From contig VXNZ01000033.1 of the NCBI GenBank assembly GCA_009840355.1, forward strand, positions 14,580 to 78,579: a DNA stretch of 64,000 nucleotides, given 5' to 3'. The translations under genes and the position numbers were made by a program. The number at the start of each line of letters is the position of its first letter. Within the stretch, counting starts at the first letter, position 1. This document shows, piece by piece, positions 23,641 through 56,748 of the stretch. The notes below the pieces were generated by a model. It saw only the letters and a list, made by a program, of their open reading frames with translations, had not been told where the DNA came from and did not search any database. Source of the DNA: Chloroflexota bacterium. Lineage in GTDB: Bacteria; Chloroflexota; Dehalococcoidia; Lucifugimonadales; JADFKI01.

Positions 23641-24171
23641 TCAGCCCGAATGCGTGTAAGTATTGCCGAAGCGTTCGCTATGCGCCACTTCCGACAGTGC
23701 CCGGCGATTGCGCCGCCCGAACTTGCCCATATTCGCGCTCTTGCGATAGCCGAACGGCAAGATGGTCAGCAGCACGAGATGCGCCGGTATGCTCAGCACT
23801 TCCTTGATCGCCGCGTTCTGGTCGGCGTCGCGGATACCGATGAAGCATGTGCCCATGCCCTCTTCCCACGCGACAAGTTCCATGTGCTGTATAGCTCTGC
23901 CCGCGTCCAATGGCGCTCTCGGCGTGTCGTCGGTCACGACGGCGATGGCAAGCGGAGCATCCCCCAGGCACGGTCCCTGCGTCGCCATCTCGCCCAGCCG
24001 CTTTATCGTGGCTGCGTCCCGAATCACGATGAAGTGCCAAGGCTGCAAGTTCTGCGAACTCGGCGAAAGCCTGCCCGCTTCCAAAAGCCTATCAACCACA
24101 TCGTCCGGCACGGCGTCAGGCTTGTACTCCCGCACCGTCAGCCGCGTCAACACCGCATCATTAACATCCAT
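23641..24171 (-). CDS. Nitroreductase family protein
   Basis: 176 aa; RLSPSSQNLQPWHFIVI motif. Confidence 0.85.
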   Translation of the reverse strand: MDVNDAVLTRLTVREYKPDAVPDDVVDRLLEAGRLSPSSQNLQPWHFIVIRDAATIKRLGEMATQGPCLGDAPLAIAVVTDDTPRAPLDAGRAIQHMELVAWEEGMGTCFIGIRDADQNAAIKEVLSIPAHLVLLTILPFGYRKSANMGKFGRRNRRALSEVAHSERFGNTYTHSG

Positions 24172-24195
24172 GATTTACCCTCCACGACAGTCCTT

Positions 24196-24322
24196 TGTCA
24201 TTCTGAACGCATCTCCGTTCATTCTGTCATTCTGAACGCAGCGCAGCGGAGTGAAGAATCCAGAATTATCCGCACTGCCGTCTGATAACGATTTAAGATT
24301 CCTCGCTGCGATCGAAATGACA
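24196..24322. repeat. Palindromic MITE-like repeat, copy 2, with duplicated left terminus
   Basis: TGTCATTCTGAACGC occurs twice (24196 and 24225). Right end is GATTCCTCGCTGCGATCGAAATGACA. Homologous to 19006..19092. Confidence 0.6.
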
Positions 24323-24363
24323 AGAGTCTGATAGACTGACAGACTGATGAACTGACAGACTCT

Positions 24364-24873
24364 CTACACCGGATACCGCCACACTTCGCCCGCCGGCTCT
24401 TCGTCCGACAGCCTGAAGTGCGGCACGGAGAAACCTTCGTCAGTGTCAAGAAACACCACTTCGACGCGCTTGCCGATGCCCACTTCGTCCGGGTCTTCCG
24501 GCTCCATATCATCGTTCAGCAGGTTCGCGGTGATACGCAAGCCATTCTCAGGGTTTGGCTCGCCGCTCTGCTCGTCCAGTTCGACCAGCACGACCGTGTA
24601 CGGCACCCAGTCACGGAACGCTGGCATAATGGCGTGAGTGATGACCTGGTAACTGTAAATCGTGCCTTTGCCGCTGACTTCCTGCCATCCCCAGTTCAGC
24701 GAGCCGCACCACGGACACGCCGCGCCCGGATCACCGCGCAGCATCCCGCAAGTCAGCTCGCTGCACTTCTTCACCACCAGCCTATGCTCCATCGCCGCAT
24801 CGAAGTAGCCCTTGTACTCGCTGTCAAGTTCCGTAATGTTCAATGCCATACCGCGATAATCATATATCGGCAT
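24364..24873 (-). CDS. Zn-ribbon OB-fold protein (DUF35), partner of the thiolase-like protein
   Basis: 169 aa; CxxC...CPWC zinc ribbon (CSELTCGMLRGDPGAACPWCGS). Confidence 0.85.
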   Translation of the reverse strand: MPIYDYRGMALNITELDSEYKGYFDAAMEHRLVVKKCSELTCGMLRGDPGAACPWCGSLNWGWQEVSGKGTIYSYQVITHAIMPAFRDWVPYTVVLVELDEQSGEPNPENGLRITANLLNDDMEPEDPDEVGIGKRVEVVFLDTDEGFSVPHFRLSDEEPAGEVWRYPV

Positions 24874-24966
24874 TACTCTTTTCCCTCCGCAATCGGCGCA
24901 TTAGCCGCTACAGGATGGGTATATTCACATCCAATCCGCCCTACCCATCCTGCACATCGATGTTAT

Positions 24967-26187
24967 TTACTTCCGCATAATAAGCGCGCTGCCCACGCCC
25001 GGCATAGCCCAGCCCATGTTCATAGTGATGTTCACATCCCGCACTTGGCGGCAGCCGCCCTCCGCATAGTCGTAGGAATGCTCACCGTTCTCCCAATGCG
25101 GGCAGTAGTCGTCCACCAAGCCGCGCAGCTGCCGTACATTCTCGATGACCATGTTCATGCCGTGCGTGTAGCCTTCGCACAGATGCCCGCCGCTCGTGTT
25201 GTTCGGACGCCTGCCGCCGAGGTCGGTTATACCGCTCTTCACATACTCCTTGCCCTCGCCCTTCTCGCAGAATCCGTAGTCCTCAAACTGCAAGAGCGTC
25301 GTGTATGTGAAAGCGTCATAGCAGCCGGTAACATCGATGTCATCGTGCGTAATGCCCGCAAGCTCGAACAGACGCGGGCCGATGTAATGCCCCGCCACGC
25401 GCGTAATCGGCGCGTACTGGTAGTGGAAGTCGCCGCCCGGCTTCGATCCTCTGCCCTGCACCGCCATGATGTACGCCGGCGTGTGGCGCAGGTCCTTCGC
25501 GCGTTCTGCCGATGTTACGATGATGCAGGTCGCGTTGTCGGTTTCGAGGCAGCAGTCCAACAAGTGCGCGCACGGCTTGACTATCCAGCGCGAGTTGACC
25601 ACATCATCGACGGTAACGCGCTGCTTCATCAGCGCCTTCGGGTTATTGCTGGCGTGCTTGCTGTGCGTAACCTTGATGTGCGCCAGGTCTTCGCCGGTAA
25701 CGCCGTATTCCATCATGTGCCGCGTGAAAGTAAAGGCAAAGTTTTGCACCGCGCTCGCCACGCCGTAAGTGCGCTTCATCAGGTCGGAGCCGCCGATGGG
25801 CGCAGCCGCGCGCGCCCCCGTGCCGCCTATACGCACCTGCGAATAGCCGTTCATCGCGCGAAATATCGCCACCGTATCGCACATCCCCGCCTCTATCGCG
25901 CCGATGGCAAGCCCAACAAGCGCCTCAGTGCTAGAGCCGCCGCCCGAGCAGTCCATGTAGAAGTTCAGGCGCATACCCAAGTCGTACATCATCGTTGTGG
26001 ACGGCGTGGAATCGCCGCCATGGTAGCTGAGCATCCCGTCCACATCCTGCGGCGTCAGCCCCGCGTCATATATGGCATTGCGAATAGCCTCAACCCCAAG
26101 CGCCCGCGTGCTTCTGCCGGACGCGCGGCTATACTCCGTCTCGCCCACGCCAACGATAGCGTACTTATCCTTCAATCGTCCTTCCAT
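24967..26187 (-). CDS. Thiolase-like protein (SCP-x / lipid-transfer-type)
   Basis: MEGRLKDKYAIVGVGETEYSRASGRS...; GGAGGG 5 nt before ATG 26187. The upstream extension in the track has no support. Confidence 0.85.
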   Translation of the reverse strand: MEGRLKDKYAIVGVGETEYSRASGRSTRALGVEAIRNAIYDAGLTPQDVDGMLSYHGGDSTPSTTMMYDLGMRLNFYMDCSGGGSSTEALVGLAIGAIEAGMCDTVAIFRAMNGYSQVRIGGTGARAAAPIGGSDLMKRTYGVASAVQNFAFTFTRHMMEYGVTGEDLAHIKVTHSKHASNNPKALMKQRVTVDDVVNSRWIVKPCAHLLDCCLETDNATCIIVTSAERAKDLRHTPAYIMAVQGRGSKPGGDFHYQYAPITRVAGHYIGPRLFELAGITHDDIDVTGCYDAFTYTTLLQFEDYGFCEKGEGKEYVKSGITDLGGRRPNNTSGGHLCEGYTHGMNMVIENVRQLRGLVDDYCPHWENGEHSYDYAEGGCRQVRDVNITMNMGWAMPGVGSALIMRK

Positions 26188-26386
26188 GCTAACCCTCCTA
26201 AATTGCAAATACTTGCAGCGCGGTAAGTATCGCCTGTTCAGTAGTGATTGGCAAGTGCGAGCGCATGAAACTGTCCATCTGCTAAACTTGCTATACGGGA
26301 TTTTCTTACACAAACGCAAGTTGCGTGCCGAACATTAGTATCATACAATAGCCACCATCATGTAGGAGGCACACCCAAACCCAAGA

Positions 26387-26789
26387 ATGGCAGATCGAAA
26401 AGCCAAATGGCTCATATACACCGTTCTAGTGGCGCTGATACCGGCAATGGCGCGGATGATAGTATGGCTAATCCCAGAACCCGGACACCGATCTATTCAA
26501 CGCCGTAGATTTCATAATCTTCGGACTGGTACTGCACATATCCAATATCAATGAATTAGAGCACTTCGACGAAAGAGAAGAGTCATGGAAGACAGTCCAG
26601 AACGGCGCATCGGTGTTTCTGCTCATCGTGTACAGCATCTTGTTGACGTCTCACCTGTTCGGTGAAGCAAATCCCGGACTCATAGACACTCAAACTATGA
26701 AAATCGGTGCTATGTTGTTAGGAATTATATCGTTCTTGATAAGTTATTCTGTGTACAACGCGACTTCAAAGTCGGTAGGGGAGAAATAA
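26387..26789 (+). pseudogene. ~133-aa four-TM membrane protein interrupted by a +1 frameshift at a CCC run
   Basis: Frame A reads MADRKAKWLIYTVLVALIPAMARMIVWLIPEPG... Frame B, open from 26472, reads ...DTDLFNAVDFIIFGLVLHISNINELEHFDEREESWKTVQNGASVFLLIVYSILLTSHLFGEANPGLIDTQTMKIGAMLLGIISFLISYSVYNATSKSVGEK*. Lies in the low-GC region. Confidence 0.45.
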
Positions 26790-26927
26790 ATGCTGACAAT
26801 ACCGATAATCGTGCTAACCGCAATCGCCTGCGTGGTAGGACTTAGCGTCGCTGTTTGGTCAATCGTAACTACCGAGAAACGACACCGCGAACGCCTCCGC
26901 AAACAAAAGGAAAGCGTCAGCAACTAG
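26790..26927 (+). CDS. Small single-pass membrane protein (45 aa)
   Basis: MLTIPIIVLTAIACVVGLSVAVWSIVTTEKRHRERLRKQKESVSN. ATG abuts the preceding TAA. Confidence 0.35.
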   Translation: MLTIPIIVLTAIACVVGLSVAVWSIVTTEKRHRERLRKQKESVSN

Positions 26928-27026
26928 GCGCCTCTACAAGGACGAGCGAAAGCGCAGCGTGAGCGAATAGACGATTCACCAGATTCTCGTAACCTAACAT
27001 TTCGGAAGCGTGGGAGACTCGCACCG

Positions 27027-28112
27027 ATGTACAAATTACAAGAACTTCTAGAATCCGCACTACACGAGATTGTGGAAAGTGATGATTGCAATCTGGATGC
27101 CAATCAATTGGAGGACAAGATTTCCAAAATGATTCCAGATGTCTGCGATGAAACAGCAACAGATATGTTGGCCAGTATCAAAGAAGACGCCTTTTCAGGC
27201 GGACTGGAAGAAGCTAGGACGGGAAGACGCGAATTTGAAAGAAGGTTAATGGAGGTTTGGAAAAAGCCGATAGAGCTTCTTGAGTTGTTCGTGTCATTAG
27301 CAACGGAAGCAGGCGTAGATTTCAACAGCGAGTTCGGCAACGAAGCCGTAAGTTCAGACGATTACTTGTTTGAAGCACTCACTAGATTGCATGGCAGAGC
27401 ATGCCAAGTGTCCAATGAAATTCTTGTCCTGTTGCGCTCAGGCTATGCAGATGGAGCACACGCACGCTGGCGGACCTTACACGAGATTGCAGTTATAAGC
27501 TTTTGTCTCAGCGAACCAGAAGAGGACGAGCACAGACAAGAATTAGCTGAAAAGTATTTACTGCATGACACCATACAGCGATATAAATTGGCGTGCCAAT
27601 ATCAGAAGTACGGCGAGAGGCTTGACTTGAAGCCGATTCCACAAGAGGAGTTCGATAATCTCCAGACAGAGTACAACAAGCTCATAGCCCGATTTTGCAA
27701 ACCATTCGAGAAACCCTACGGATGGGCAGCATCACCAAAGAGCCCTACGATGACAGCAATTGAAGAGCGCGTTGAATTGGCTCATTGGCGTCCCTACTAC
27801 AAAATGGCAAGCGATAATGTGCATGCAAATGCACATGGAAGTCACTTTAGACTAGGTTTGGCCCCACTTGACGAGGATATGATTTTGGCGGGACCAAGCA
27901 ACGCGGGATTAGTCGATCCCGGGCATTCAACTGCAATCTCACTCAATCAGATAACCGCAGTCTTGCTCGGAACTAGGTCAAACTTCGACTGCGCGGTCGT
28001 CTTGATGATATTACAGAAATTGGTAAACGAGATTGGGGAAGCATTTCTTGAAGCACACAATTATGTTGAAATGTTATCCAATAGTGAAAATGAGACAGAA
28101 AGCGCGACATGA
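27027..28112 (+). CDS. Hypothetical protein, DUF5677-like (family assignment from memory, not searched)
   Basis: 361 aa, low GC (about 42% in sampled lines). Core RLHGRACQVSNEILVLLRSGYADGAHARWRTLHEIAVISF. Stop overlaps the MTase start (ATGA). Confidence 0.6.
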   Translation: MYKLQELLESALHEIVESDDCNLDANQLEDKISKMIPDVCDETATDMLASIKEDAFSGGLEEARTGRREFERRLMEVWKKPIELLELFVSLATEAGVDFNSEFGNEAVSSDDYLFEALTRLHGRACQVSNEILVLLRSGYADGAHARWRTLHEIAVISFCLSEPEEDEHRQELAEKYLLHDTIQRYKLACQYQKYGERLDLKPIPQEEFDNLQTEYNKLIARFCKPFEKPYGWAASPKSPTMTAIEERVELAHWRPYYKMASDNVHANAHGSHFRLGLAPLDEDMILAGPSNAGLVDPGHSTAISLNQITAVLLGTRSNFDCAVVLMILQKLVNEIGEAFLEAHNYVEMLSNSENETESAT

Positions 28113-29725
28113 TCCCCTCCCCCAACGCCCTCTACTTCGGCGACAACCTCGACATCCTGCGCCAGCACATCCCCGACGAGTCCGTTGACCTCATATACCT
28201 GGACCCGCCGTTTAACTCTAACGCCACCTACAATGTGCTCTTCCGCGAGCGCAGCGGCGAGGAGTCGGCGGCGCAAATCACCGCCTTCGACGACACATGG
28301 CGCTGGAACATCGAATCCGAGCTTGCATATCAGGACGTCGTAACCCAGCAGGGCGGAAAAGTCGGCGAACTGCTCGCAGCCATGCGCGCCTTCCTCGGAC
28401 AGAACGACATGATGGCGTACCTCACCATGATGGCGCAGCGCATGGTCGAACTCCACCGCGTCCTAAAACCCACCGGCAGCATCTACCTCCACTGCGACCC
28501 CACCGCAAGCCACTACCTCAAACTGCTGATGGACGCCGTGTTCGGCCCGGAGAACTTTCAGAGCGAAATCACTTGGCAGCGCACGAGTTCCCACAATGAC
28601 TCAAAGCGATTTGGGCAGGTGAAGGACGCGCTACTTTTCTATTCTAAGTCCAGTAGTCGAAAATGGAATCCCGTATTTGTGCCGCACGACGAAAAGTACG
28701 TGTCGAATTTCTATCGCTATGAAGATGACAAAGGCAAATACAGGCTTCAAGAGATTATACGAACCGCCTCAATGGGTCCTCGACCAAATCTCGCCTATGA
28801 GTACAAAGGTTACACCCCCGAATGGGGATGGCGGATGGAACGGGACAAGCTGGAGTCTCTTGACAATGATGGGCGTCTTGTCTGGTCAAGTACCGGGCGT
28901 CCGTACCGCAAAACGTACCTCTCTCAGGGCAGAGCACCTACAAATCTATGGACAGATATTAAGAACCTGTCAGCGCAAGCCCGTGAACGCCTCGGCTACC
29001 CCACGCAAAAGCCCGAGGCATTGCTCGAACGCATCATCAGCGCGTCCAGCAACGAAGGCGATGTCGTACTCGACCCGTTCTGCGGCTGCGGAACAGCAGT
29101 CGCCGCCGCAGAGCGTCTCAACCGCCGCTGGGTCGGCATAGACATAACCCACCTCGCCATCACCCTCATCCGCCACCGCCTGCACGATACATTCGGCGAA
29201 GACCTGCGCCCCTACGAAGTCGTCGGCGAGCCGAAAGACCTGCCCAGCGCCGAGTCCCTAGCCCTCCACGACCGCTACCAGTTCGAGTGGTGGGCGCTCG
29301 GCTTGGTCGATGCCCGCCCCGCCCGCGACCGCAAGAAGGGCGCAGACGCCGGCATAGACGGCTACATCAGCTTCTTCGACGACAACAGCGGCAAGCCCAA
29401 GCGCATAGTCGTACAGGTCAAGAGCGGCGGCGTGCAGCGCAGCCAGATCGCCACGCTCAAATCTGACATGGAGCGCGAAAAAGCCGACCTCGCCCTGTTC
29501 GTAACCCTCAAGCCGCCCACGCGCCCGATGCAGCAAGAAGCATTGGAAGCCGGCTTCTACGCCCCCGAAGCCTTCCCCGACCACCGCTTCCCCCGCGTGC
29601 AAGTCCTCACCATCGAAGACCTACTCTCCGGCACGCAGCCCCAATACCCCCGCTACGCCCCCGCCGCAACCTTCCCCCGCGCGCCGAGGCGACGGCGGCA
29701 AGGACGGCAAGGGAGACTGGGGTAG
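28109..29725 (+). CDS. Beta-class amino DNA methyltransferase (N6A or N4C) fused to a C-terminal Mrr-like PD-(D/E)xK nuclease-fold domain
   Basis: IYLDPPFNS (motif IV) near the N-terminus, VLDPFCGCGTAV (motif I) about aa 320. C-terminal GADAGIDGYISF...IVVQVKSGG. Confidence 0.85.
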   Translation: MIPSPNALYFGDNLDILRQHIPDESVDLIYLDPPFNSNATYNVLFRERSGEESAAQITAFDDTWRWNIESELAYQDVVTQQGGKVGELLAAMRAFLGQNDMMAYLTMMAQRMVELHRVLKPTGSIYLHCDPTASHYLKLLMDAVFGPENFQSEITWQRTSSHNDSKRFGQVKDALLFYSKSSSRKWNPVFVPHDEKYVSNFYRYEDDKGKYRLQEIIRTASMGPRPNLAYEYKGYTPEWGWRMERDKLESLDNDGRLVWSSTGRPYRKTYLSQGRAPTNLWTDIKNLSAQARERLGYPTQKPEALLERIISASSNEGDVVLDPFCGCGTAVAAAERLNRRWVGIDITHLAITLIRHRLHDTFGEDLRPYEVVGEPKDLPSAESLALHDRYQFEWWALGLVDARPARDRKKGADAGIDGYISFFDDNSGKPKRIVVQVKSGGVQRSQIATLKSDMEREKADLALFVTLKPPTRPMQQEALEAGFYAPEAFPDHRFPRVQVLTIEDLLSGTQPQYPRYAPAATFPRAPRRRRQGRQGRLG

Positions 29726-29806
29726 CGGATAGACTGACTGCGAACTCAGTATGCTAAAATCAGTCTGTCCCGATAATCACTCAGAACTAGCGCCGGAGAT
29801 AACGCA

Positions 29807-29989
29807 ATGAGTGTGTACAAAGCACAACTTGAACGGGAAGAAGACGGCAGGTGGAGCGCGTGGATAGACGAACTCCCCGGCTGCGCCGCTTGGGGATACA
29901 CGCAAAACGAAGCCCTAGACGCCCTCCAAGACGCCGCCGAAGCCTATATCGAGGATATGGTAGAAGCCGGCGAACTGCTCCCTGCGTAA
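29807..29989 (+). CDS. HicB-like antitoxin-fold protein (orphan, no adjacent HicA)
   Basis: MSVYKAQLEREEDGRWSAWIDELPGCAAWGYTQNEALDALQDAAEAYIEDM. GGAG 8 nt upstream. Confidence 0.7.
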   Translation: MSVYKAQLEREEDGRWSAWIDELPGCAAWGYTQNEALDALQDAAEAYIEDMVEAGELLPA

Positions 29990-35685: not shown

Positions 35686-35815
35686 GATGGATACAGAATA
35701 CGCATTATATCGGCAACTGGCAAGCGGCTGTCGATCTTGCACATCCTGTAAACGTAACAAAGCCCCGAACCGTTGCCAGTTCGGGGCTTTGTTATTATGG
35801 CAAAAGCGTATGAGC

Positions 35816-36106
35816 TTAGTCAGCGGCGGCAGATGCCCTTACGGAATCCACCCTATCCTTAACGATTGCCTTCAATTCCTTGACTCGGTTAAGGTGCGGG
35901 GTTTCGTTGCCCTCTTCGGCCTTGTCATAGATCTTGTCGCCATCGACATAGACCTGCAACACACCGGAGACACCCGGCCTTACCTCGATAGAAACTGCAT
36001 TACCACCGACATCCACAAACTCGTTGACCATCCAGGCCGCAACACTGTGGTACTGTCAAGGTACGCAGTAGATGATCTCAATGTCCAACAGACCTTCGCC
36101 AGCCAT
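35816..36106 (-). CDS. SelW/Rdx-family selenoprotein (96 aa, in-frame TGA at 36058..36056 read as Sec)
   Basis: AGGAGG-7nt-ATG(36106), then MAGEGLLDIEIIYCVP-U-QYHSVAAWMVNEFVDVGG..VYVDGDKIYDKAEEGNETPHLNRVKELKAIVKDRV. TGA is in frame with track ORF 35816..36031. CxxU sits at the family redox motif. Confidence 0.8.
36023..36043 (-). promoter_or_regulatory. Candidate bacterial SECIS hairpin for the SelW-like gene
   Basis: mRNA GUUGCGGCCUGGAUGGUCAAC starts 12 nt after UGA. GGCC/GGUC stem plus GUU/AAC stem, apical loop UGGAU. Confidence 0.45.
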
Positions 36107-36227
36107 AACTGATCCTCCTGCTAAGATTTAAGCCCATTAGAGAGTGTTTGCTAATCTCTGTACAGGCACTCGCTGATGTTGAATCAGCGTATCACGCCAA
36201 TTCTACACTGTCAACCGGCGTTTACGC

Positions 36228-37478: not shown

Positions 37479-38774
37479 TTACCGTTCCCAAACGCCTAGG
37501 TCCATTCCCATGTCCACAACGGCGGTTTGCCTGTTTAGTGTAGTCTCTAAGCCGTCGCGGTATTCGCGCCAGGCTAGTTCTTCGTCTTCCACATTGTCGG
37601 CGGACTTGAGGCTGTCCTGCAAGTTTTCCATCAGGTAGTCTTCCGCGCGGCCCGTGGGCATGCTGAAGAACTCCGTATCGAAGCGCGGCAGCTTGCCCAC
37701 CTCGAAATAGCCCTTGTCCGGCAATTCATACCCTTCGAGATTTTCCGTGCCCTTGCCCAGCACATCGCCGGTCTCGATGTAATGTTCCATCACCGGCTTC
37801 ATGCCGTACTTCTGTATTGGGCAGGTCTTCATGCAGACACCACAGCCGGAATAGCGCGTCATCACGGGGCGACAGCGCTTAGCGATGAGCTTCGCCTTTT
37901 CCACGCCGCGATACCACAGCCGCTGACCTTGAATCGCGCGACCGGGGCAGCGCATAAAGCATACTTGGCATATCTCGCAGAACTTCGGCACGCCGTAGTC
38001 AACGGGACGGTCGTGCGTAACGCGCGCGTCCGTGATGATGATTTGCAGCCGCGCGCGTGAGCCGAAGTGCGGCGACAGCAGCTGCCCGTTCACGCCGAGC
38101 TGCCCCAGACCGGCATCGACGAACATCGGTATCATGGGACCGAACTGCCATGTCGGCCCCGACACCTGCGCCCGATAACCAAGCTCATTGATGTGCGCGA
38201 CTAGGTCTTTCACCAGCGTTGCCTGCCGCCGGTATGTCTCGCCCTGCGCCTCTTCCGCTTGAATGCTTGGCAATGTCTGAGTGGCGGAGTGTTCCTGTTC
38301 GAGCGCGAGGCAGATGGCGTTCGGCAAGCCGCGCCGCACATCGTTCAGCCGCGCCTTGTAGATGTAGCGGCGGTCGAATCGCGTGAACCCAACTTCGCTG
38401 TATCCCAGCGCGCGCGCCTTCTCCCTGATGGACTGAGAAACATCCTCACCGCTCGGCTCGGCAGTCGGTTCCAGGTCGCCGCTCGAGCGAACCCACTTGA
38501 TTTCAGACATCATGTCGTCCTGAAACTCTTCGTACAGCTCTTGAGTTTCAGGCGAAACTTCGCGCCGTATGTCGTCCGCCCATTCGACTGATGCGCTTTG
38601 TTCCAGGGCGAAGCTTTCCAGCGGATACTCGCGCGCGTAGAAGGTTATCTCCTGCTCACGCCGCAGCGAGTCCGGCGCTTTCTCCAAGTCCTTCGCCACC
38701 GGAATGACCACATCCTCGTCGCCGTGCTCTCGTCCGGGTCTCGTAACCGCATGCCCAAATCTGCGTCTTGCCAT
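37479..38774 (-). CDS. 4Fe-4S dicluster protein of the reductive-dehalogenase / QueG-like superfamily
   Basis: 431 aa; IREKARALGYSEVGF, CEICQVCFMRCP and CGVCMKTCP motifs. Confidence 0.55.
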   Translation of the reverse strand: MARRRFGHAVTRPGREHGDEDVVIPVAKDLEKAPDSLRREQEITFYAREYPLESFALEQSASVEWADDIRREVSPETQELYEEFQDDMMSEIKWVRSSGDLEPTAEPSGEDVSQSIREKARALGYSEVGFTRFDRRYIYKARLNDVRRGLPNAICLALEQEHSATQTLPSIQAEEAQGETYRRQATLVKDLVAHINELGYRAQVSGPTWQFGPMIPMFVDAGLGQLGVNGQLLSPHFGSRARLQIIITDARVTHDRPVDYGVPKFCEICQVCFMRCPGRAIQGQRLWYRGVEKAKLIAKRCRPVMTRYSGCGVCMKTCPIQKYGMKPVMEHYIETGDVLGKGTENLEGYELPDKGYFEVGKLPRFDTEFFSMPTGRAEDYLMENLQDSLKSADNVEDEELAWREYRDGLETTLNRQTAVVDMGMDLGVWER

Positions 38775-44729: not shown

Positions 44730-46199
44730 TTACGCGCGTTCCATTGCGCCGGCTAGGACGGGGCGCAGGTTGGTGGTGCCCATCAGGTATTGGTCAACGC
44801 CGCGCGCCGCTTCTCTGCCCTCGGCGAGCGCCCAGACTACCAGCGACTGCCCGCGCGCCATATCGCCAGCTGCGAACACGCCATCTACGCTGGTCATCTT
44901 GTTCGTGTCGGTCTGCACATTGCCGCGGCCGTCTAGCGCGACGCCCAGCTGCTCCACGATGCCTTCGCGCTGTGGACTCACGAAGCCCATCGCCAGCAGC
45001 ACGAGGTCGGTGTCTATCACGAACTCGCTGCCCTCTATTCGCTCCATGCTCGGGCGGCCGGATGCGTCGGGCGGGCCCCAGTTGACGCGAACGGCGTGCA
45101 GCTTCTCCACGTTGCCGTTGCTGCCGGAGAAGTGCGTCGTCAGCACATCATAGTCGCGCACACCGCCCTCTTCCTGCGAAGACGATGTGCGCAGGATCAT
45201 AGGCCACTGAGGCCAGGGGTTGTTCTCACCGCGCTCGATCGGCGGCTCGGACAGCAGCTCGCACTGATAGACAATTTCAGCGCCCTGCCGGTGCGATGTG
45301 CCTAGGCAGTCGGAGCCGGTATCGCCTCCGCCCAGTATTACCACGCGCTTGCCCTCGGCACTGATACGCTCATCGTCAGGAATATGCTCGCCGGCGTTCA
45401 AACGATTCTGCTGCGTCAGGAAATCCATCGCGAAATGCACGCCATCCAGCTCGCGGCCGGGAACAGGCAGGTCTCGCGGGATGGTGCAGCCGCCGGTCAG
45501 CACGACCGCGTCGAACTCGCGCGTCAGCTCTTCGCCGGAAATGTCAACGCCCACATTGACTCCGCACTTGAAGATAATACCCTCTGCCGTCATCTGATCG
45601 ACGCGCCGCTGCACGACGGTCTTTTCCAGCTTGAAGTCCGGGATGCCGAGCCGCAGCAGTCCGCCAATGTAGTCGTCGCGCTCGAACACGGTAACCCAGT
45701 GTCCGCAACGATTGATCTGCTGCGCGGCGGCAAGCCCTGCTGGACCCGAACCGACCACGGCGACCTTCTTGCCCGTGCGCTGCGACGGCGATTCAGGGAC
45801 TATCCAGCCTTCTTGCCAGCCTCTGTCCGCGATCGCCTTTTCGATGTACTCGATGGTAACCGGGTCTTGGTTGATGTTCAGCACGCAAGCGGCTTCGCAC
45901 GGCGCGGGACATATTCTGCCGGTGAACTCGGGGAAGTTGTTCGTGGCGTGAAGCTCAGCCAGAGCCTCCTGCCACTTGCCTCGATACACGAGATCGTTAA
46001 AGTCTGGTATCAGGTTTCCCAGCGGACAACCCGTATGGCAGAACGGAACGGCGCAGTTCATGCACCTTGCGCCCTGCTCTTTAGCCTGCTCTTCGCCCCA
46101 ATTGTAGTAGAACTCGCTGAAATGCCGGATTCGGTCGCTAACAGCCTGCTGCGGCGGTCCCTGCCGTCCGTATTCCTTGAAACCCGTTGGCTTTCCCAT
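44730..46199 (-). CDS. gltD: Glutamate synthase small subunit (NADPH)
   Basis: MGKPTGFKEYGRQ conserved N-terminus (start taken at internal Met 46199); VAVVGSGPAGLAAA. Confidence 0.9.
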   Translation of the reverse strand: MGKPTGFKEYGRQGPPQQAVSDRIRHFSEFYYNWGEEQAKEQGARCMNCAVPFCHTGCPLGNLIPDFNDLVYRGKWQEALAELHATNNFPEFTGRICPAPCEAACVLNINQDPVTIEYIEKAIADRGWQEGWIVPESPSQRTGKKVAVVGSGPAGLAAAQQINRCGHWVTVFERDDYIGGLLRLGIPDFKLEKTVVQRRVDQMTAEGIIFKCGVNVGVDISGEELTREFDAVVLTGGCTIPRDLPVPGRELDGVHFAMDFLTQQNRLNAGEHIPDDERISAEGKRVVILGGGDTGSDCLGTSHRQGAEIVYQCELLSEPPIERGENNPWPQWPMILRTSSSQEEGGVRDYDVLTTHFSGSNGNVEKLHAVRVNWGPPDASGRPSMERIEGSEFVIDTDLVLLAMGFVSPQREGIVEQLGVALDGRGNVQTDTNKMTSVDGVFAAGDMARGQSLVVWALAEGREAARGVDQYLMGTTNLRPVLAGAMERA

Positions 46200-46279
46200 G
46201 TATCGGTTCGCCTGCGCTCTCACTCAGCCATTCCTGCGATTGCAGGAATGTCGTGGTTGTAAATGATATGTCGTTCAGA

Positions 46280-49200
46280 TTAGTCCGCGGCAATTGCGGC
46301 TGCGCGCTCCATCAGTATGCGCTTGTAGTCGTGGGGCATCACCTTAACGAACTTGGGCAGCATTGCGTCCCAGTCGTCCAGCACGCGGCGGGCGTTTGCG
46401 CTGCCGGTCTGTTCGTAATGCTCTTCTATCAGGCTGCGCAGTCCGTGTTCGTCTTCGGCGTCTTCCACATTTTCCAAGCCGACCATCTCATGGTTGCAGA
46501 GGGACGCGAAATCGCCGCTCTCGTCCAGCACATACGCCTCGCCGCCGCTCATACCTGCGGCGAAATTGCGCCCGGTCGGTCCAAGCACGACCACCTTGCC
46601 GCGCGTCATGTATTCGCAACCGTGCTCGCCAACGCCTTCTACGACGGTCTCCGCGCCGCTGTTGCGCACTGCGAAGCGCTCGCCCGCGACGCCGCGGATA
46701 AACGCCTTGCCCCCCGTAGCGCCATATAATACTACATTGCCCACGATAATGTTTTCTTCCGGCGTGAAAGACGCTTCCGGCGGCGGTGCGATGACAACCT
46801 TGCCGCCGGACAAGCCCTTGCCAAAGTAGTCGTTGGCGTCGCCGCGCACGCGCATCGTAACGCCCTTCGCGAGGAACGCGGAAAAACTTTGCCCCGCCGA
46901 GCCGCTGAAGTTTATCGTTATCGTATCGTCAGGCAGCGCCTCGATGCCGTGCCGCTTAGCAATCTCGTAACTGAGCGTCGTGCCAACCGTGCGATTGCGA
47001 TTGCTTATCGGCAGGTCGAGCGTCACCGCCTTCTTGGAATCGATGGCGTCCACGCACAACTCGATAAGTTCGTTGTCCAGCGCGCGTTCCAGCCCGTGGT
47101 CTTGCTCTTCACGGCAGTATGTCGCAACCGAGTCCGGCACCTGCGGCATATACAGCAGGTTGGAGAAGTCCAAGCCTTGCGCCTTCCAGTGTGCGACTGC
47201 TTCGCGCGTGTCGAGCCTGTCCATGCGGCCGACCATTTCGTTTATGGTACGGAAGCCCATCTCCGCCATGATCTGCCGCAGTTCTTCGGCGACGAAGAAG
47301 AAGTAGTTGATGACATATTCGGGCTTGCCGGCGAACATCTTGCGCAGTTCGGGGTCTTGCGTGGCGACGCCGACCGAGCAGGTGTTCAGGTGGCATTTGC
47401 GCAGCATAATGCAGCCAAGGCTGATTAGCGGCGCGGTCGCCATGCCGAACTCTTCCGCGCCAAGCAGGCATGCGATTGCCACATCCCTGCCCGTCTTTAG
47501 CTGCCCGTCCGTCTGCACGACGATTCTGCCGCGCAGGTCATTGAGCACCAGCACTTGCTGCGTCTCGGCGACACCGAGCTCCCACGGCAAGCCCGCGTGC
47601 TTGATGGACGATTCCGGCGATGCACCCGTGCCGCCGCTGTCGCCGCTGATTAGCACGACATCGCCGTGCCCCTTGGATACGCCGGCCGCGATAGTGCCGA
47701 CGCCCGCCTCTGCGACGAGTTTGACATGCACTCGCGCGTCGGGATTGGAGTTCTTCAGGTCGTGGATAAGCTGCGCCAAGTCTTCGATTGAGTATATGTC
47801 ATGGTGCGGCGGCGGCGAGATTAGTTCGACGCCGGGCGTGGAGTTGCGCACCCAGCCGATGTACTCGTCTATCTTGTGCCCCGGGAGCTGCCCGCCCTCG
47901 CCGGGCTTGGAGCCTTGCGCCATCTTAATCTGCAAGTCACGCGCGCTGGCGAGGTAGTTGATGGTAACGCCGAAACGTCCGGACGCAACCTGCTTCATGG
48001 CGCTGTTGCGCGAGTCGCCGTTTTCGTCCGGCGTGTAGCGATGGAAGTCTTCGCCGCCCTCGCCGGTGTTGCTACGCGCGCCGATTCGGTTCATCGCTAT
48101 CGCCATCGTCTCGTGCGCCTCGCGGCTAATGGAGCCAAGCGAGATTGCGCCGGTGGCGAAGCGTTTCACGATGTCCGCCGCGGGTTCCACTTCGTCCAAA
48201 GACAGCGGCGTATCCGCCATCTTGAAATCCAGCAATCCTCTGATTGTGCAGAGTTCGCGGCTGAAATTGTTGGCGAAATCCGCGAACTGCTGGTAAGTCT
48301 CGTAATTGTTCGTCTTCGTTGCGAACTGCAGGCGGCTGATAGTGTCCGGATTCCACATGTGGTATTCGCCGTCGCGCCGCCACTGGTAGAAACCGCCGGT
48401 CTGCAAGTTTAGGCTGCTCGTAGGCGAAAGTTGGTGGAATGCCGCTTCGTGGCGCTTGCGGCTTTCCTGCTCTATCTCGTAGATGCCGATGCCGCCGATG
48501 CGCGATGGCGTCCAAGTGAAGTAGTCGTCGATGAATTCGGAGTTCAGCCCCACAGCCTCAAATATCTGCGCGCCGCGATAGCTTTCGATTGTGGATATGC
48601 CCATCTTGGACATAATCTTCAGGATGCCCTTGTCAGCAGCCTTGATGTAATTGTACACGCCGGTCTCGTAATCGACCATGCCCGCTAGCGCGCCGCCATC
48701 TTCCGCCATATCGCGGATTGTCTCGAATGCGAGATATGGATTGACAGCGACCGCGCCGTAGCCAATGAGCACGGCAAGATGCGCGACCTCACGCGGTTCG
48801 CCGGATTCGACGATGAGGCTGACTTTCGTACGCACGCCCTGCCGTATGAGGTGGTGATGCACAGCAGCGACGGCGAGAAGACTGGGAATGGGCGCGTTGT
48901 ACACATCCACGCACCTATCGGACAGGATGATGATTGTGTTGCCCGCTTCGACGGCTTCGTATACTTCGTCGCATATCTGCCGGACCGCGCGTGCGAGTGC
49001 GCCGTCATTCTCGTCTGTGGTGAACAGCGTGCGTATCGTCTTCGCCTTCAAGCCGGGCAGGTCGATTTGGCGTATCTTTTCGAGTTCAGGATTAGACAGC
49101 ACCGGGCGCTTTACGCGCAGTGTGCGGCAATGTTCCGGTGTCTCGGTGAACAGGTTGCGCTCGCTGCCAACGCGCGATTCGAGCGATGTAACGAGTTCTT

Positions 49201-50821
49201 CACGGATCGCGTCCAGCGGCGGGTTGCTGACTTGCGCGAACAGCTGTTTGAAGTAGTTGAAGAGCAACGGGCTTTGTTCCGAAAGAACCGCGAGCGGCGT
49301 GTCGTTGCCCATCGAGCCTATCGGTTCGCTACCCGTTTCCGCCATCGGTTCCATAATCATGCGCATATCTTCGAGCGTGTAGCCAAATGCCACCTGGCGC
49401 GCAGTCAGCCCGCCGTTGGTTAATGTGGGCTGCTCCGGCTCGTCCGGCAGGTCATCCAGGGACACGCGGTTCTCGCGCAGCCATTCGCCGTAGGGCTGCT
49501 GTGCGGCAAGCGAGCTCTTCAGCTCGGCGTCGTCCACGAGGCGGCCATCTTCGGTGTCCAGCATGAACATACGGCCAGGATGGATGCGATCCTTGAACAG
49601 CACATCTTCCGCCGGCACATCCAGCACGCCGGTCTCGGACGCCATCACCAGCAAGTCGTCGGTGGTAACGAGATAGCGGCACGGGCGCAAGCCGTTCCTG
49701 TCGAGCACAGCGCACACCTTCGTGCCATCGGACGCGATGATAAGAGCGGGGCCGTCCCACGGCTCCATCAGGCAGGAATGATACTCGTAGAAGTCCTTCT
49801 TAGCCTGGTCCATCGGCAGATGGTCGCCCCACGCCTCCGGTATCATCATCATCAAGGCATGCGGCAGGGAGCGGCCTGTGGCGAGCAGCAGTTCCAGCGC
49901 GTTGTCGAAGCTGGCAGTGTCGCTCTGCACGCCCTTCGTGACGATGGGCAGCAGCTTATCCAAATCATCGCCGAGCGCATCGGACGCGAACATGCCTTCA
50001 CGCGCCGTCATCCAATTGATGTTGCCTCGCAGGGTGTTTATCTCACCGTTGTGTATCACCATGCGATACGGGTGCGCCAGCCGCCAGGAGCCGAGCGTGT
50101 TCGTGCTAAAGCGCGAGTGCACCAGCGCGAAAGAGGTAACCACACTCTCATCAGCCAGATCGTGGTAGAAATGCTGAAGCTGCGTGGCGTGAATCAGCCC
50201 CTTATACACAATCTTGTTTGGCGATAGGCTGGACACATAGAAGTCATTCCGTTCGTCCAGACCGGACTCCGCAACGGCGTCCTCGAACTGCCTGCGAATG
50301 ACATACAGCTTCATCTCGAAATCGAAGTCAGTCTGCAAGTCTGCGCTGCGTCCGACGAAGAACTGCCGAATAGCAGGCATTACTTCGTATGCTAATGTAC
50401 CAATCTCATTGGGTGATATAGGCACATCACGCCAGCCAAGCAGCGCCTGCCCTTCCTGCTCCACGAAGCTGCGCACTATGCCTTCGACTTGGCGCTGCCT
50501 CGCTTCGTCATGCGGCATGAAAACCATGCCGACCGCGTAATTACCCGGCTGCGGAGGCTCGACGCCAAGTTGCTGCATCTCCTTGCGGAAGAATTCATGC
50601 GGCATTTGTATTAGCACGCCGGCGCCGTCACCCGTCTCCGGGTCAGCGCCCTTCGCACCGCGATGTTCGAGATTGCACAGCACTTCAAGTCCGCGCTTGA
50701 GGATGTCGTGCGATCGCACACCCTTGATATTGGCGACAAGCCCCACACCGCAGGCTTCGTGCTCAAAGCGCGGGTCGTACAGCCCTTGCTTGGTCAAGTT
50801 GGGTATGTATCTCTCGGACAT
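46280..50821 (-). CDS. gltB: Glutamate synthase large subunit
   Basis: 1513 aa; N-terminal amidotransferase starting ...FEHEACGVG; FMN and GXGXG domains. Confidence 0.95.
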
Positions 50822-51024
50822 GTCCGTGCCTCTCGTCGGTTACCTTTTACATCATAGGTGTAGGTAGGTATTGCCCCTTATAGAGGGGGAAATATAATGT
50901 GGGGAAATCGCGGCTCTCCGGTGCATGGTTGCGCGGGGAATTGCGCACTACACGTAGGCGGGAATTAGGATTTGCGAGAGAATCGAAACGCCGCGTCCGT
51001 AGTGCGATTGCCGAGCCGCCGGCG

Positions 51025-52362
51025 TTATAGCACCGGCAAATAGTGCTCTTTCTCGTAGTCCGCCACGCGGCTGTGATAGTTCTCCCACTCTATCTTCTTA
51101 TTCTCTATGAAGCTGTTGAACACAGCCCCTCCCAGCGCGTCTTGCACGAGTTCACTTCGTTCGGTGATGCCAATTGCCTCCCACAGATTGGCAGGCAGCG
51201 CCTCGATGCCAAGTTCGTCGCGTTCCGCTTGCGTCAGGCGAAGGGCGTTCACCTGCGCGGGCTGCGGGAATTCGTAGCGATTCTCGATGCCCTTTAAGCC
51301 AGCCGCCAACATCACGCTGAACGCCAGATACGGATTGCACGCCGGATCGGGCGAGCGAAACTCGATGCGCCGCGATTCTTCCCTGCCCGGCTTGAAGTCG
51401 GGCACACGAATGAGGTCGGCACGGTTGACAGTTGACCATGTAACATAGGTCGGCGCCTCGAACGCTGGCACGAGGCGCTTGTACGAGTTCACCCACTGGT
51501 TAGTTACGGCGGTAATCTCGCGGGCGTGCTTCATCAGCCCTGCGATGAAGAACTTCGCCGTCTCGGACAGATGGTGTTCGTCATCGTCGTCGTAGAAGGC
51601 GTTCCTGTCGCCTTGGAACAGCGACTGGTGCATGTGCATGCCGCTGCCGTTCACGCCGTCCAGCGGCTTGGGCATGAAGGTCGCGTAATAGCCGTTCTGC
51701 CGCGCGACCTCTTTGACCACCAGCCGATAAGTCATAATCGTATCCGCCATGGTGAGGGCGTCTGTGTGGCGCAAATCGATTTCGTGCTGGCTGGGCGCGC
51801 CTTCCTGATGGCTGGATTCGACAGGGATGCCGATGTCTTCGAGCGTCAGGACGGTCTGGCGGCGCAGGTCGGTCGCATCGTCGCCGGCGCCCTGCCCGAA
51901 GTAGCTGCCCCTGTCCTCGGTAACCGTGCCCTTCGCGTCTTTGAAATAGAAGTACTCTATTTCCGGGCCGACATAGTATGTATAGCCGAGTTTCGATGCG
52001 TCCGCGAGGTTGCGCCTGAGCACGGCGCGCGGGTCGCTTTCGAGAGGTTCGTCGTCGGGCGTGATGATGTCGCAGAACATGCGCGCAACGGCGTTCTCGC
52101 GCGGCCGCCATGGCAGCACGTTGAAGGTGTTCGGGTCGGGCAGCGCGTACATATCGCGCTCGTCCGAGCGCACAAAGCCTTCAATCGCGGAACCGTCAAA
52201 GCCCATGCCGCGTGTGAGCGAGTGCTCGAGTTCTTCGACTGTGATGGCGAAGCCCTTCAGATTGCCTAGTATGTCGGCGAACCATAGACGAATAAACTTG
52301 ACATCGTTCTCTCGCGCCTCACGCAGAACGAATTCAGTCGCTTCGTAGTCTCTCGCTAACAT
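51025..52362 (-). CDS. glnA: Glutamine synthetase type I
   Basis: 445 aa; FDGSAIEGF, NGSGMHMHQS motifs. Confidence 0.95.
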   Translation of the reverse strand: MLARDYEATEFVLREARENDVKFIRLWFADILGNLKGFAITVEELEHSLTRGMGFDGSAIEGFVRSDERDMYALPDPNTFNVLPWRPRENAVARMFCDIITPDDEPLESDPRAVLRRNLADASKLGYTYYVGPEIEYFYFKDAKGTVTEDRGSYFGQGAGDDATDLRRQTVLTLEDIGIPVESSHQEGAPSQHEIDLRHTDALTMADTIMTYRLVVKEVARQNGYYATFMPKPLDGVNGSGMHMHQSLFQGDRNAFYDDDDEHHLSETAKFFIAGLMKHAREITAVTNQWVNSYKRLVPAFEAPTYVTWSTVNRADLIRVPDFKPGREESRRIEFRSPDPACNPYLAFSVMLAAGLKGIENRYEFPQPAQVNALRLTQAERDELGIEALPANLWEAIGITERSELVQDALGGAVFNSFIENKKIEWENYHSRVADYEKEHYLPVL

Positions 52363-52485
52363 GTCAGCCTCTTTATGATCGCCACGCTCGCCGATTGCGG
52401 CATGTGGGCATGCACGAATATCAGACAGCCGTGCCTGCGGTGATTGCCATGATACTGCTGCACGCCTGTAATTCGCGGTTGAGAT

Positions 52486-52514
52486 AGTATATCAGTTTGT
52501 GAAAATTGTGTCAA
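52486..52514 (-). promoter_or_regulatory. Near-consensus sigma70 promoter of glnA (long leader, ~120 nt)
   Basis: Minus strand: TTGACA - 17 nt - TATACT. Confidence 0.55.
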
Positions 52515-52697
52515 TCTAATGCGCGGAAGCAAGCGTACATGGGCAGCAGGCACCACATTGCCAGCCTAACTCTTGCTACGACTTCATTTTGACGCGAAAG
52601 AAGCCTGCGCAATTCCATCCCCGGCGCTGCACAGGCTTCGGTTCTTCGGCTATGACAGCCGTCAATTTATCATCATATCGTCAGGAATGCGCCGGCG

Positions 52698-53708
52698 TTA
52701 CGCCGATGCCGCCGAGCCGACGGTGTTGATGATGAGTTCCGTAACCTTGTACGGATCCATGTTGGCGTTGGGTCGCCTGTCCTCGATGTAGCCCTTGCCG
52801 TCGCGGGCGACCTGCCAAGGTATCCGAACGGACGCGCCCCTGTCGGAGACGCCGTATTTGAATTCCTTGTAGGATGCGGTCTCGTGGAGGCCGGTCAGCC
52901 TCTGTTCGATGTCCGCGCCATAGTTGGCGATATGCTCTTCGTGGTTGCCGCCAAGCGCCTCTGCCGCGGCAATGCAGGCATCGTAGTTCTCGCGCATGGC
53001 GTTCGTGGAGAAATTGGTGTGCGCTCCGGCGCCGTTCCAGTCGCCTTTGACGGGCTTGGGATCGAGCGTGGCGGCGACGCTGTGGCTCTCACCGATGCGA
53101 TACAGCAGCCAGCGCGCGATCCAGAGCTGGTCTGCCACTGCGGGCGAGCCGACGGGACCGACCTGGAACTCCCACTGCGCGGGCATAACTTCGGCGTTGA
53201 TACCGGAGATTTCCAAGCCGGCTGCGATGCAGGCGTCTAGATGCTCTTCGACTACCGGGCGGCCGAACACTTCGTCCGAACCGACGCCGCAGTAGTAGCC
53301 GCCCTGCGGTGCGGGGAAGCCATTCTCGGGCCAGCCAAGAGGCTGCGACCTGACGCCGGTGAAGAAGGTGTATTCCTGCTCGATGCCGAACCAGAAGTCC
53401 AGGTCGGCGTACTTCTCGGCGGCAGCTGCGCATGCTGCGCGCGTGTTGGAGGGATGCGGGGTCATGTCCGGCAGCAGCACTTCGCACATCACCAGCACGT
53501 TGTCGCCGCCACGGATCGGGTCAGGGCAGGTGAACACGGGGTTCAGCACGCAGTCCGAGTCCTCGCCGGGCGCCTGGTTAGTACTGGAGCCGTCAAAGCC
53601 CCACACCGGCGGCTCTTCGCCGACGGGCACAACTTTGCCCTTAGAGCGGAGTTTGGCGGTAGGCTCGGTGCCGTCCACCCAGATGTATTCCGCCTTGTAA
53701 ACATTCAT
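52698..53708 (-). CDS. glnII: Glutamine synthetase type II (eukaryote-like GSII)
   Basis: MNVYKAEYIWVDGTEPTAKLRSKGKVV start typical of GSII; 336 aa; AGGAGG upstream. Confidence 0.85.
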   Translation of the reverse strand: MNVYKAEYIWVDGTEPTAKLRSKGKVVPVGEEPPVWGFDGSSTNQAPGEDSDCVLNPVFTCPDPIRGGDNVLVMCEVLLPDMTPHPSNTRAACAAAAEKYADLDFWFGIEQEYTFFTGVRSQPLGWPENGFPAPQGGYYCGVGSDEVFGRPVVEEHLDACIAAGLEISGINAEVMPAQWEFQVGPVGSPAVADQLWIARWLLYRIGESHSVAATLDPKPVKGDWNGAGAHTNFSTNAMRENYDACIAAAEALGGNHEEHIANYGADIEQRLTGLHETASYKEFKYGVSDRGASVRIPWQVARDGKGYIEDRRPNANMDPYKVTELIINTVGSAASA

Positions 53709-53820
53709 TCCTTGCCTCCTGTTGGGACTATATGACTAGAGCGCCTTAACGGATTATCGGTCCGCCATGTCGGGCGGATTGGCGTGTGATACGCTGCCGC
53801 AAATCGGTTTAGACAGCAAA

Positions 53821-53854
53821 CCAGCGAGACTTTCATGTGATAAAGCCTCGCTGG
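53821..53854 (-). terminator. Strong hairpin between the sORF and glnII (possible attenuator or processing site)
   Basis: On the minus-strand RNA: CCAGCGAG-G-CUUU [AUCACAUG] AAAG-U-CUCGCUGG, 13 bp including one G-U. Weak U-tract. Confidence 0.45.
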
Positions 53855-53899
53855 TAATTTTACAAGATTTATGGCTGATTTCCAATTATTCAGCCGGGA

Positions 53900-53992
53900 T
53901 TACTTACTGCGGTTCCTGCGAACCGCGCTGGGAACAACCACCCACAAGGCGAACAACGCGGCGAATGCCACACCTGCTAGCATCAACTCCAT
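53900..53992 (-). CDS. 30-aa hydrophobic sORF upstream of glnII
   Basis: GGGAGG-7nt-ATG; MELMLAGVAFAALFALWVVVPSAVRRNRSK*. Below the track cutoff. Confidence 0.45.
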   Translation of the reverse strand: MELMLAGVAFAALFALWVVVPSAVRRNRSK

Positions 53993-54061
53993 AATAACTG
54001 CCTCCCGTGATAGAAGAATGTGTCTGTTGTGTATGAGTTACAAACCATTTTGCGGCAGGCA

Positions 54062-54100
54062 TGTTTCAAGCGTGTTACGCAATTGTTACATCGATGTTAC
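54062..54100 (-). promoter_or_regulatory. Four 11-bp-phased GTAACA/GAAACA boxes (GlnR-like operator array)
   Basis: Minus strand: GTAACA-tcgat-GTAACA-attgc-GTAACA-cgctt-GAAACA, about 70-105 nt upstream of the sORF start. Confidence 0.55.
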
Positions 54101-54220
54101 ATATTGCCGATTAACCAGCTTGGATACGCAGGATGGACAGGATAGGCTTCGTCGTGCCGTTTCCTGCCCATCCCGTCCCGTTACTTGTCCATTGACGCTA
54201 GCCGGCGTTAGCTTTGTCGA

Positions 54221-55528: not shown

Positions 55529-55593
55529 CTCTCTTTCCCTTCCTTTCATGTAGTGTATGAGAATGACACGATGGGGAAAATCTACGCCACCAA

Positions 55594-55654: not shown

Positions 55655-55736
55655 CCATACCAAACTCCTTTTGTGACGAGCCTTTGGAGCCTGTCGAACG
55701 GTGAACCGTTGGTCTACTGAAAACTCTTTCCCCTTG

Positions 55737-55745
55737 TGCTACAAT
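55737..55745 (+). promoter_or_regulatory. Candidate extended -10 element (TGCTACAAT)
   Basis: 29 nt upstream of ATG 55774. Confidence 0.35.
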
Positions 55746-55773
55746 CAAGCCACGACAAGCATCGATTGTTGGT

Positions 55774-55983
55774 ATGGCAAACCGAGAGCAGCGCATTGCG
55801 CAACTTGAAACCGCTCGGGCGGCGACCGACGAGCGCGTCGATGAGTGCCGAGACGACGTCAAAGCAAGTTTTGAGAAACTCGAAGCCGACATCAGGGAAG
55901 TCAGGAACTGGATTATCGGGCTTATAGGCCTTGCCGCAGGAGTAGGAACGGCCATCGTAGTGGCTCTGATTACAACAGGCTGA
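55774..55983 (+). CDS. Small coiled-coil protein with C-terminal TM anchor (XhlA/DUF1640-like architecture)
   Basis: MANREQRIAQLETARAATDERVDECRDDVKASFEKLEADIREVRNWIIGLIGLAAGVGTAIVVALITTG. Confidence 0.45.
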   Translation: MANREQRIAQLETARAATDERVDECRDDVKASFEKLEADIREVRNWIIGLIGLAAGVGTAIVVALITTG

Positions 55984-56031
55984 ATCGGGCCATCGACTCG
56001 AAGACATCCAAGCCGAAAGGAGACAGGCATT

Positions 56032-56676: not shown

Positions 56677-56748
56677 ATTTTTAGTAGTGTAGAGGGGCAT
56701 CCGAATGTGGATGCCCCTTTCACTGCACTATCTCCTATCAACCATCGC

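Follow-up and report, generated by a model that had tools for sequence, protein, structure and literature searches.

Selenocysteine (Sec) is very probably inserted at the minus-strand UGA at 36058..36056 by the standard SelB/SECIS route, which would yield a 96-aa thioredoxin-fold oxidoreductase of the SelW-like/Rdx family with a Cys14-Sec17 centre. The gene lies within the 64-kb stretch of DNA analysed here (hereafter the window). The reading frame, the family and fold, the alignment of Sec with Cys, the conservation of the UGA and the constrained hairpin behind it were all computed here. The first-pass annotation of this DNA had proposed an unannotated selenoprotein at this site, and the selenoprotein reading is supported by the conservation of the UGA, the Cys alignment, a coding signal upstream of the UGA and the constrained hairpin. 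As the family is the commonest known marine bacterial selenoprotein family, the gene is a mis-annotated member of a well-known family and the result is an annotation fix, not a discovery. The features of the gene are as follows.

35816..36106, minus strand: SelW-like/Rdx coding sequence, 96 codons and TAA, with proposed Sec at codon 17 (translation, Pfam, PDB homologs, orthologs)
36056..36058, minus strand: in-frame UGA, proposed Sec, U17 of C14-V-P-U17 (TGA in 80/81 orthologs, Cys aligned in structures)
36114..36119, minus strand: Shine-Dalgarno AGGAGG, 7 nt before ATG1 (read from the sequence)
36026..36038, minus strand: candidate SECIS core, 4-bp stem GGCC/GGUC with loop UGGAU (RNAalifold, frozen synonymous sites)
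36013..36050, minus strand: extended hairpin with lower helix CCACAG/UUGUGG, middle UUG/CGA and the core (minimum-free-energy fold)

Reading frame, family and predicted fold

Translation of the minus-strand frame 36106..35816 gives 96 codons and TAA, with one in-frame TGA at codon 17. The frame reads MAGEGLLDIEIIYCVP, the TGA at 36058..36056, QYHSVAAWM(26)VNEF...AAAD and TAA at 35818..35816, the residues after the TGA being QYHSVAAWMVNEF...SAAAD, and the redox motif around the TGA is C14-V-P-U17. The ATG at 36106..36104 is preceded by AGGAGG at 36119..36114 with a 7-nt spacer, and a GGAGG-type motif is found at the same place before ATG1 in most of the 80 related loci. All coordinates that had been put forward hold, as do the 7-nt spacing of this ribosome-binding site and the read-through length of 96 aa.

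Both the ORF list and the public gene call give solely a 71-aa ORF from Met26, as the first-pass annotation had described for the ORF track. Public entries for the gene are 70-71 aa long, are named 'Rdx family protein' and come from dozens of Dehalococcoidia/SAR202 genomes. Among the protein matches listed, most are such short homologs of 68-71 aa and a few are full-length (91-94 aa), the latter beginning with MAGEGK..EI.YCVPC and not at Met26. The ATG of Met26 (36031..36029, minus strand) spans the last two loop bases and the first 3'-arm base of the SECIS core, and since it lies within the invariant UGGAUGG, the same short call recurs in every genome. The word 'unannotated' is thus right for the public gene calls, with their short entries of 70-71 aa, but not for the family, which has long been known.

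Scored with Cys in place of U, the 96-residue product covers positions 2-74 of the 74 in the model of the Pfam family Rdx (PF10262) and reaches 51 bits against a cutoff of 22.6 (E 1.7e-13), and its score against the NCBIfam model TIGR02174 (CXXU_selWTH) is 33.6 bits, the curated cutoff being 34.2. In phmmer, it matches six bacterial SelW-related crystal structures (2OKA, 3DEX, 2OJL, 2OBK, 2FA8 and 2P0G) with E values of 1e-7 to 4e-5, and the YCTQCQW of these solved proteins is aligned to the YCVPUQY of the window protein, which places the UGA on the second Cys of CxxC. The fold was examined on a Cys-form homolog that is 54% identical to the window protein (P0010), and not on the window protein itself. 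The AlphaFold model of this homolog (mean pLDDT 89) comprises b1 (7-14), the CxxC loop, a1 (20-37), b2, b3, b4 and a2 (72-88), with b1 ending at C14 and C17 lying in the loop before a1, in agreement with the earlier description, in which a beta-strand ends in a Cys and the stop follows two residues later. The best 22 PDB matches of the model are all SelW-related proteins or mouse SelW (TM 0.7-0.88), and thioredoxins rank far lower. The full-model Rdx match and the fold of the modelled homolog thus bear out the proposed SelW/Rdx membership; the window protein belongs to this family and, as predicted from the homolog, has its thioredoxin-like b1-a1-b2-b3-b4-a2 fold.

Conservation of the UGA and of the hairpin behind it

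The ortholog set consisted of the window and 80 loci from a genome collection with one genome per species, all of the latter from Dehalococcoidia, SAR202 or Chloroflexota metagenome-assembled genomes (MAGs). The window itself falls within an 82-kb metagenome scaffold (ENA ERZ23491722, ENGE20-1_SAMN12347673 scaffold_232). The nearest genome record is from a Chloroflexi MAG (L004) and is 98% identical. One cluster member of the SelW-like homologs is also recorded in an assembly of the sponge Geodia barretti. Codon 17 is TGA in 80 of the 81 orthologs, down to 52% protein identity, and TGC in the remaining one (L061), with the reading frame conserved on both sides of the TGA; judged from the sequences compared, this pattern of TGA retention is far beyond chance. 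In the 13 aligned codons before the TGA, pairwise differences at codon positions 1, 2 and 3 are 0.14, 0.05 and 0.46, and in the coding part after it they are 0.16, 0.18 and 0.53. As the upstream differences fall mainly at third positions, the upstream piece is translated in the same frame and under purifying selection.

For four further Cys forms, all of them from metagenomes, the DNA itself has TGT (L087) or TGC (L088, L089 and L090) at the codon. Together with the CxxC of the six solved proteins, the Cys forms confirm that Cys aligns with the UGA, as had been anticipated for an Rdx protein. The idea that the Cys homologs are TGA codons mistranslated with odd genetic codes proved false for P0009, P0010, P0020 and P0054, all of which have a real TGT or TGC. 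The Cys form L088 (TGC), in which the hairpin is fully intact, and L062 (TGA) are nearly identical otherwise, and their difference reflects a polymorphism within the population or a change from Sec to Cys in the very recent past.

Downstream of the UGA, RNAalifold finds a single consensus element in 61 distinct sequences, a GGCC/GGYC stem closing a UGGAU loop, and all four core pairs are kept in 61 of 61 sequences. The first-pass annotation had placed a hairpin 12 nt downstream of the UGA; the hairpin exists, but the distance is approximate, as the outer helix of the window fold starts 5 nt, the core 17 nt and the loop 21 nt after the UGA. Within the core stretch, third positions never vary in codons +6 (Ala GCG, 72/72), +7 (Ala GCC, 74/74), +10 (Val GTC, 46/46) and +11 (Asn AAC, 52/52), whereas other four-fold sites in the alignment have 1.1-1.9 bits of entropy. 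All four degenerate codons in the core stretch are frozen, compared with one of 55 elsewhere (Fisher p = 1.1e-5), and these frozen synonymous sites are the strongest evidence for a putative SECIS element. Since Cys-type members of the family likewise conserve the residues A-A-W-M, for which the hairpin codes, the conservation of the hairpin is partly a protein constraint.

When folded without constraints, 51 of the 61 sequences have the core in their minimum-free-energy structure, usually inside an interrupted hairpin of 10-18 bp. As the core stem is invariant, it has no covariation to offer. In the clade of the window, the lower-helix pair 16-45 covaries (GC 36, AU 12, GU 12 and one unpaired), and 80.6% of the cells of the extended helix are paired, compared with 21-49% with slid partners. 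Across all clades, the extended helix has this covarying pair only and a shuffle control on the whole structure was undistinctive; in the distant clades the lower helix takes another form and is not conserved. We accordingly claim no conserved long SECIS helix across clades, RNAalifold supporting the 4-bp core alone, and the stability of the hairpin is not unusual in comparison with shuffles (z = -0.21). Among the Cys forms, the hairpin is lost in L087, weakened in L090 and intact in L061, L088 and L089, a distribution over few cases that fits decay after a Sec-to-Cys switch. Taken as a whole, the hairpin is constrained in sequence and is a candidate SECIS element with a UGA-to-loop distance of 21 nt.

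Proposed recoding, competing readings and the capacity for selenocysteine

Under the proposed mechanism, the mRNA hairpin GGCC-UGGAU-GGUC inside the coding region, with its loop 21 nt after the UGA, would act as the SECIS element and would bring SelB-GTP-Sec-tRNA(Sec) to a ribosome that has paused on this codon, so that codon 17 would receive Sec; these steps follow the established bacterial pathway (PMC13326102). Selenium insertion, the binding of SelB to the hairpin and the redox substrate are thus what we infer for this gene. The mature protein would most likely be a small thiol/selenol oxidoreductase cycling through an intramolecular Cys14-Sec17 selenenylsulfide, a redox role that is suggested by the thioredoxin-like fold together with the CxxU motif. 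To our knowledge, there is no bacterial SelW-like protein with a defined substrate.

It is highly unlikely that the UGA is a true stop, with the 71-aa protein from Met26 as the product and the 16 upstream codons as a leader peptide or untranslated sequence. Gene callers and public annotations do give a 70-71-aa product in dozens of genomes, and the 71-aa ORF passes the Pfam Rdx threshold by itself (26.2 bits against 22.6), matching model positions 30-74 only. Such a product, however, would be without strand b1 and the CxxC/U motif, which define the fold and the active site, and its ATG sits inside the conserved hairpin. Moreover, Met26 is preceded by no Shine-Dalgarno motif in the window or in the related loci, whereas AGGAGG precedes ATG1 in the window and likewise in most orthologs; substitutions in the upstream codons are of the coding type and keep the frame of the part downstream, and the Cys forms are continuous proteins of 91-94 aa. 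A pseudogene whose Cys codon TGC/TGT mutated to TGA, or an assembly or sequencing error with the same outcome, is barely conceivable. The change from TGC to TGA is a single-base one, and L088 and L062 exemplify genes that are alike apart from this codon, but the same TGA is found in 80 independent assemblies from different species, including long-read complete chromosomes, and purifying selection acts on the remainder of the gene, so that this explanation is effectively refuted by the comparative data.

We also consider it very improbable that the UGA is read as Trp, Gly or Cys, through a reassigned code or near-cognate read-through and with no Sec involved. At a low level, bacteria do decode UGA with tRNA-Trp or tRNA-Cys, and public versions of the protein exist with W (P0011) and G (P0072) at position 17. 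The DNA of the Trp version (L091:189-464) has TGA at this position, however, so that its Trp comes from an alternative genetic code applied by the gene caller to a short contig. In the window, TGA ends 10 of 40 long open frames, so that it is a working stop codon and is not reassigned in this organism. The position is that of the redox-active residue, for which an exchange of Sec and Cys is a known pattern of the family, and a conserved hairpin at SECIS spacing would have no role under simple read-through. Further, SelA, SelB and SelD have been published for a genome with a 95%-identical ortholog (PMC5649159).

No selA, selB or selD was found in the 64-kb window in a Pfam scan of 20 large ORFs and in the precomputed calls for the middle 20 kb. 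ARAGORN found no tRNA, and thus no tRNA-Sec, in the window and all related loci, and a scan of the window at Rfam gathering thresholds gave no match. Likewise, tblastn with E. coli SelD and SelB as approximate queries had no match in the window and about 0.5 Mb of related flanks. That the organism decodes Sec is indicated by three indirect lines. The genome with the published machinery is SAR202 bin90, the source of L016, for which Table S4 of Slaby et al. 2017 lists SelA 3, SelB 1 and SelD 1 (PMC5649159). BSepDB, which takes in only species with a Sec pathway, includes two MAGs of Dehalococcoidia among the ten bacteria richest in selenoprotein genes, one with 49 and the other with 46 (PMC13326102). 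The third line is a further TGA-containing gene in the window itself.

56032..56676, plus strand: DsbA-like gene, probable selenoprotein (Pfam DSBA, TGA 56071..56073, hairpin 56090..56103)

This gene was found in a codon-usage screen for TGA-interrupted genes and reads MENLKVEIYGDYA-TGA-PWVYNTAVWLD...; it was the only gene found by the screen, which missed the SelW-like gene and is therefore not sensitive. Its product, with U as C, matches Pfam DSBA from residue 6 (E 5e-18), and its motif is A-U-P-W-V, without a second Cys. Full-length DsbA homologs have ACPWVYN, with Cys on the TGA position, and three orthologs (86%, 80% and 63% identity) keep the TGA together with a CAGCC-GUGU-GGCUG hairpin, the loop of which starts 21 nt after the UGA, the same spacing as in the SelW-like gene. 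Public calls for this gene are 193 aa and short of full length. DsbA-like selenoproteins are listed as UxxC in the GOS survey (PMC2398784). A 328-aa ORF on the opposite strand (55714..56700, minus strand), antisense to the DsbA-like gene and without a Pfam match, is most likely a shadow ORF and not a gene.

Genomic setting and relation to known selenoproteins

The surroundings of the SelW-like gene include the following features.

36186..36214, minus strand: possible sigma-70-type promoter TTGACA-17 nt-TACGCT (by eye, in the 120-nt gap after the FMN-dehydrogenase gene)
35751..35790, minus strand: terminator-like hairpin AAAGCCCCGAAC-8 nt-GUUCGGGGCUUU with T-rich tail (by eye, 25 nt after the stop)
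37479..38774, minus strand: reductive-dehalogenase/QueG-like Fe-S protein, 431 aa (TIGR02486, E 2e-31, below cutoff)

The promoter scan did not call TTGACA-17-TACGCT, as its -10 hexamer matches in only 3 of 6 positions, and the terminator scan did not call the hairpin at 35751..35790, a GC-rich stem of 12 bp, as its T run is interrupted. The next called gene downstream starts at 35685 and is SirB1-like (Transglut_core2 and TPR_9). From this arrangement, the SelW-like gene seems to stand alone and would be expressed monocistronically. Upstream, an FMN-dependent 2-hydroxyacid dehydrogenase-like gene comes first, followed by the gene of the 431-aa reductive-dehalogenase-like Fe-S protein, for which no Pfam family scored above threshold.

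A dehalogenase-like gene lies upstream on the same strand, adjacent to or near the SelW-like gene, in 24 of the 80 loci, including those of the window's clade and of the most distant clade, and in the latter about 110 nt separate its end from the start of the SelW-like gene. Such a neighbour was noted for loci L005-L007, L012-L017, L022-L023 and L062-L083. This neighbour is the only hint of a functional partner, and it is rather doubtful that the SelW-like selenoprotein is a dedicated redox partner of the reductive-dehalogenase-like cobalamin/Fe-S protein.

Elsewhere in the window, a defence- or mobile-looking cluster at about 27028..29989 holds genes for a DUF5677 protein, an N6/N4 DNA methyltransferase, an Mrr-type restriction endonuclease and a HicB-like antitoxin, and adjoins the stretch of lowest GC (0.533 at 24001..28000, compared with about 0.58 elsewhere). 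An ordinary-looking nitrogen-assimilation block at 44730..55549 (minus strand) contains the small and large subunits of glutamate synthase, an ammonium transporter and two genes for glutamine synthetase, of which one is short at 336 aa.

SelW-like CxxU proteins are the most abundant marine prokaryotic selenoprotein family (Zhang and Gladyshev; PMC1088965 on the Sargasso Sea, PMC2398784), and in the GOS survey they were the most abundant selenoproteins, with 427 Sec forms against 56 Cys forms (PMC2398784). Sec forms similarly outnumber Cys forms in the genome scan presented here, by 80 to 1. The SelW-like proteins of the ocean metagenomes resemble that of the window in Pfam family, in size and in the CxxU motif with Sec as the second redox residue, and their SECIS elements likewise follow closely on the UGA, inside the coding region, and have a small apical loop that includes a G. 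In contrast to these, the window protein belongs to a subfamily specific to Dehalococcoidia/SAR202, with the signatures MAGEGK..EI.YCVPU and DGDKIYDK, and the putative SECIS core of this subfamily is unusually invariant (GGCC-UGGAU-GGYC).

With the structures of Cys-type Rdx proteins (2OKA, 2FA8, 2OBK, 2OJL, 2P0G and 3DEX), the window protein shares about 30% identity over residues 8-90, the same fold (TM 0.7-0.88 for the modelled homolog) and the placing of the redox motif (CxxC in these structures), behind which a helix begins with AAW(L/M); these proteins carry CTQC and are without UGA or SECIS, whereas the window gene has CVPU with proposed Sec. Mouse SelW (NMR structure 2NPB) has the same fold (TM 0.77/0.81) and the same CxxU motif at only 15% identity. 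In mammalian SelW, the SECIS element is in the 3' UTR and works through SBP2/eEFSec, whereas the bacterial element is in the coding region and works through SelB. SECIS elements of the E. coli fdhF type (model of Zhang and Gladyshev, 2005) are stem-loops directly 3' of the UGA with a small G-containing apical loop at a UGA-to-loop distance of about 20 nt, and these features are shared by the window hairpin. Compared with the fdhF type, the loop of the window hairpin is UGGAU and not GGUC, no conserved bulged U is evident, and the conserved upper stem is only 4 bp long, with lower stems that vary between clades.

The practical value of the result lies in correct annotation, as the public calls for the SelW-like gene are short fragments without the active site, and at least one public record decodes its Sec position as Trp. 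Our knowledge of selenoproteins in general is unchanged by this gene. The points specific to the lineage are the invariant core of the candidate SECIS, the UPWV form of the DsbA-like protein and the dehalogenase-like neighbour. The hairpin is a clean example of a putative SECIS that is visible purely as frozen synonymous sites, and it could serve as a lineage-specific search model. With the SelW-like and the DsbA-like genes, the known selenoproteome of an abundant uncultured lineage from marine and sponge habitats, which is reportedly rich in selenium, gains two probable entries. If the SelW-like protein were indeed the redox partner of the dehalogenase-like protein, this would provide the first physiological context for a bacterial SelW-like protein, and GGCC-UGGAU-GGYC would then be a SECIS variant peculiar to this lineage, with a SelB of the Dehalococcoidia that has co-evolved to recognise it.
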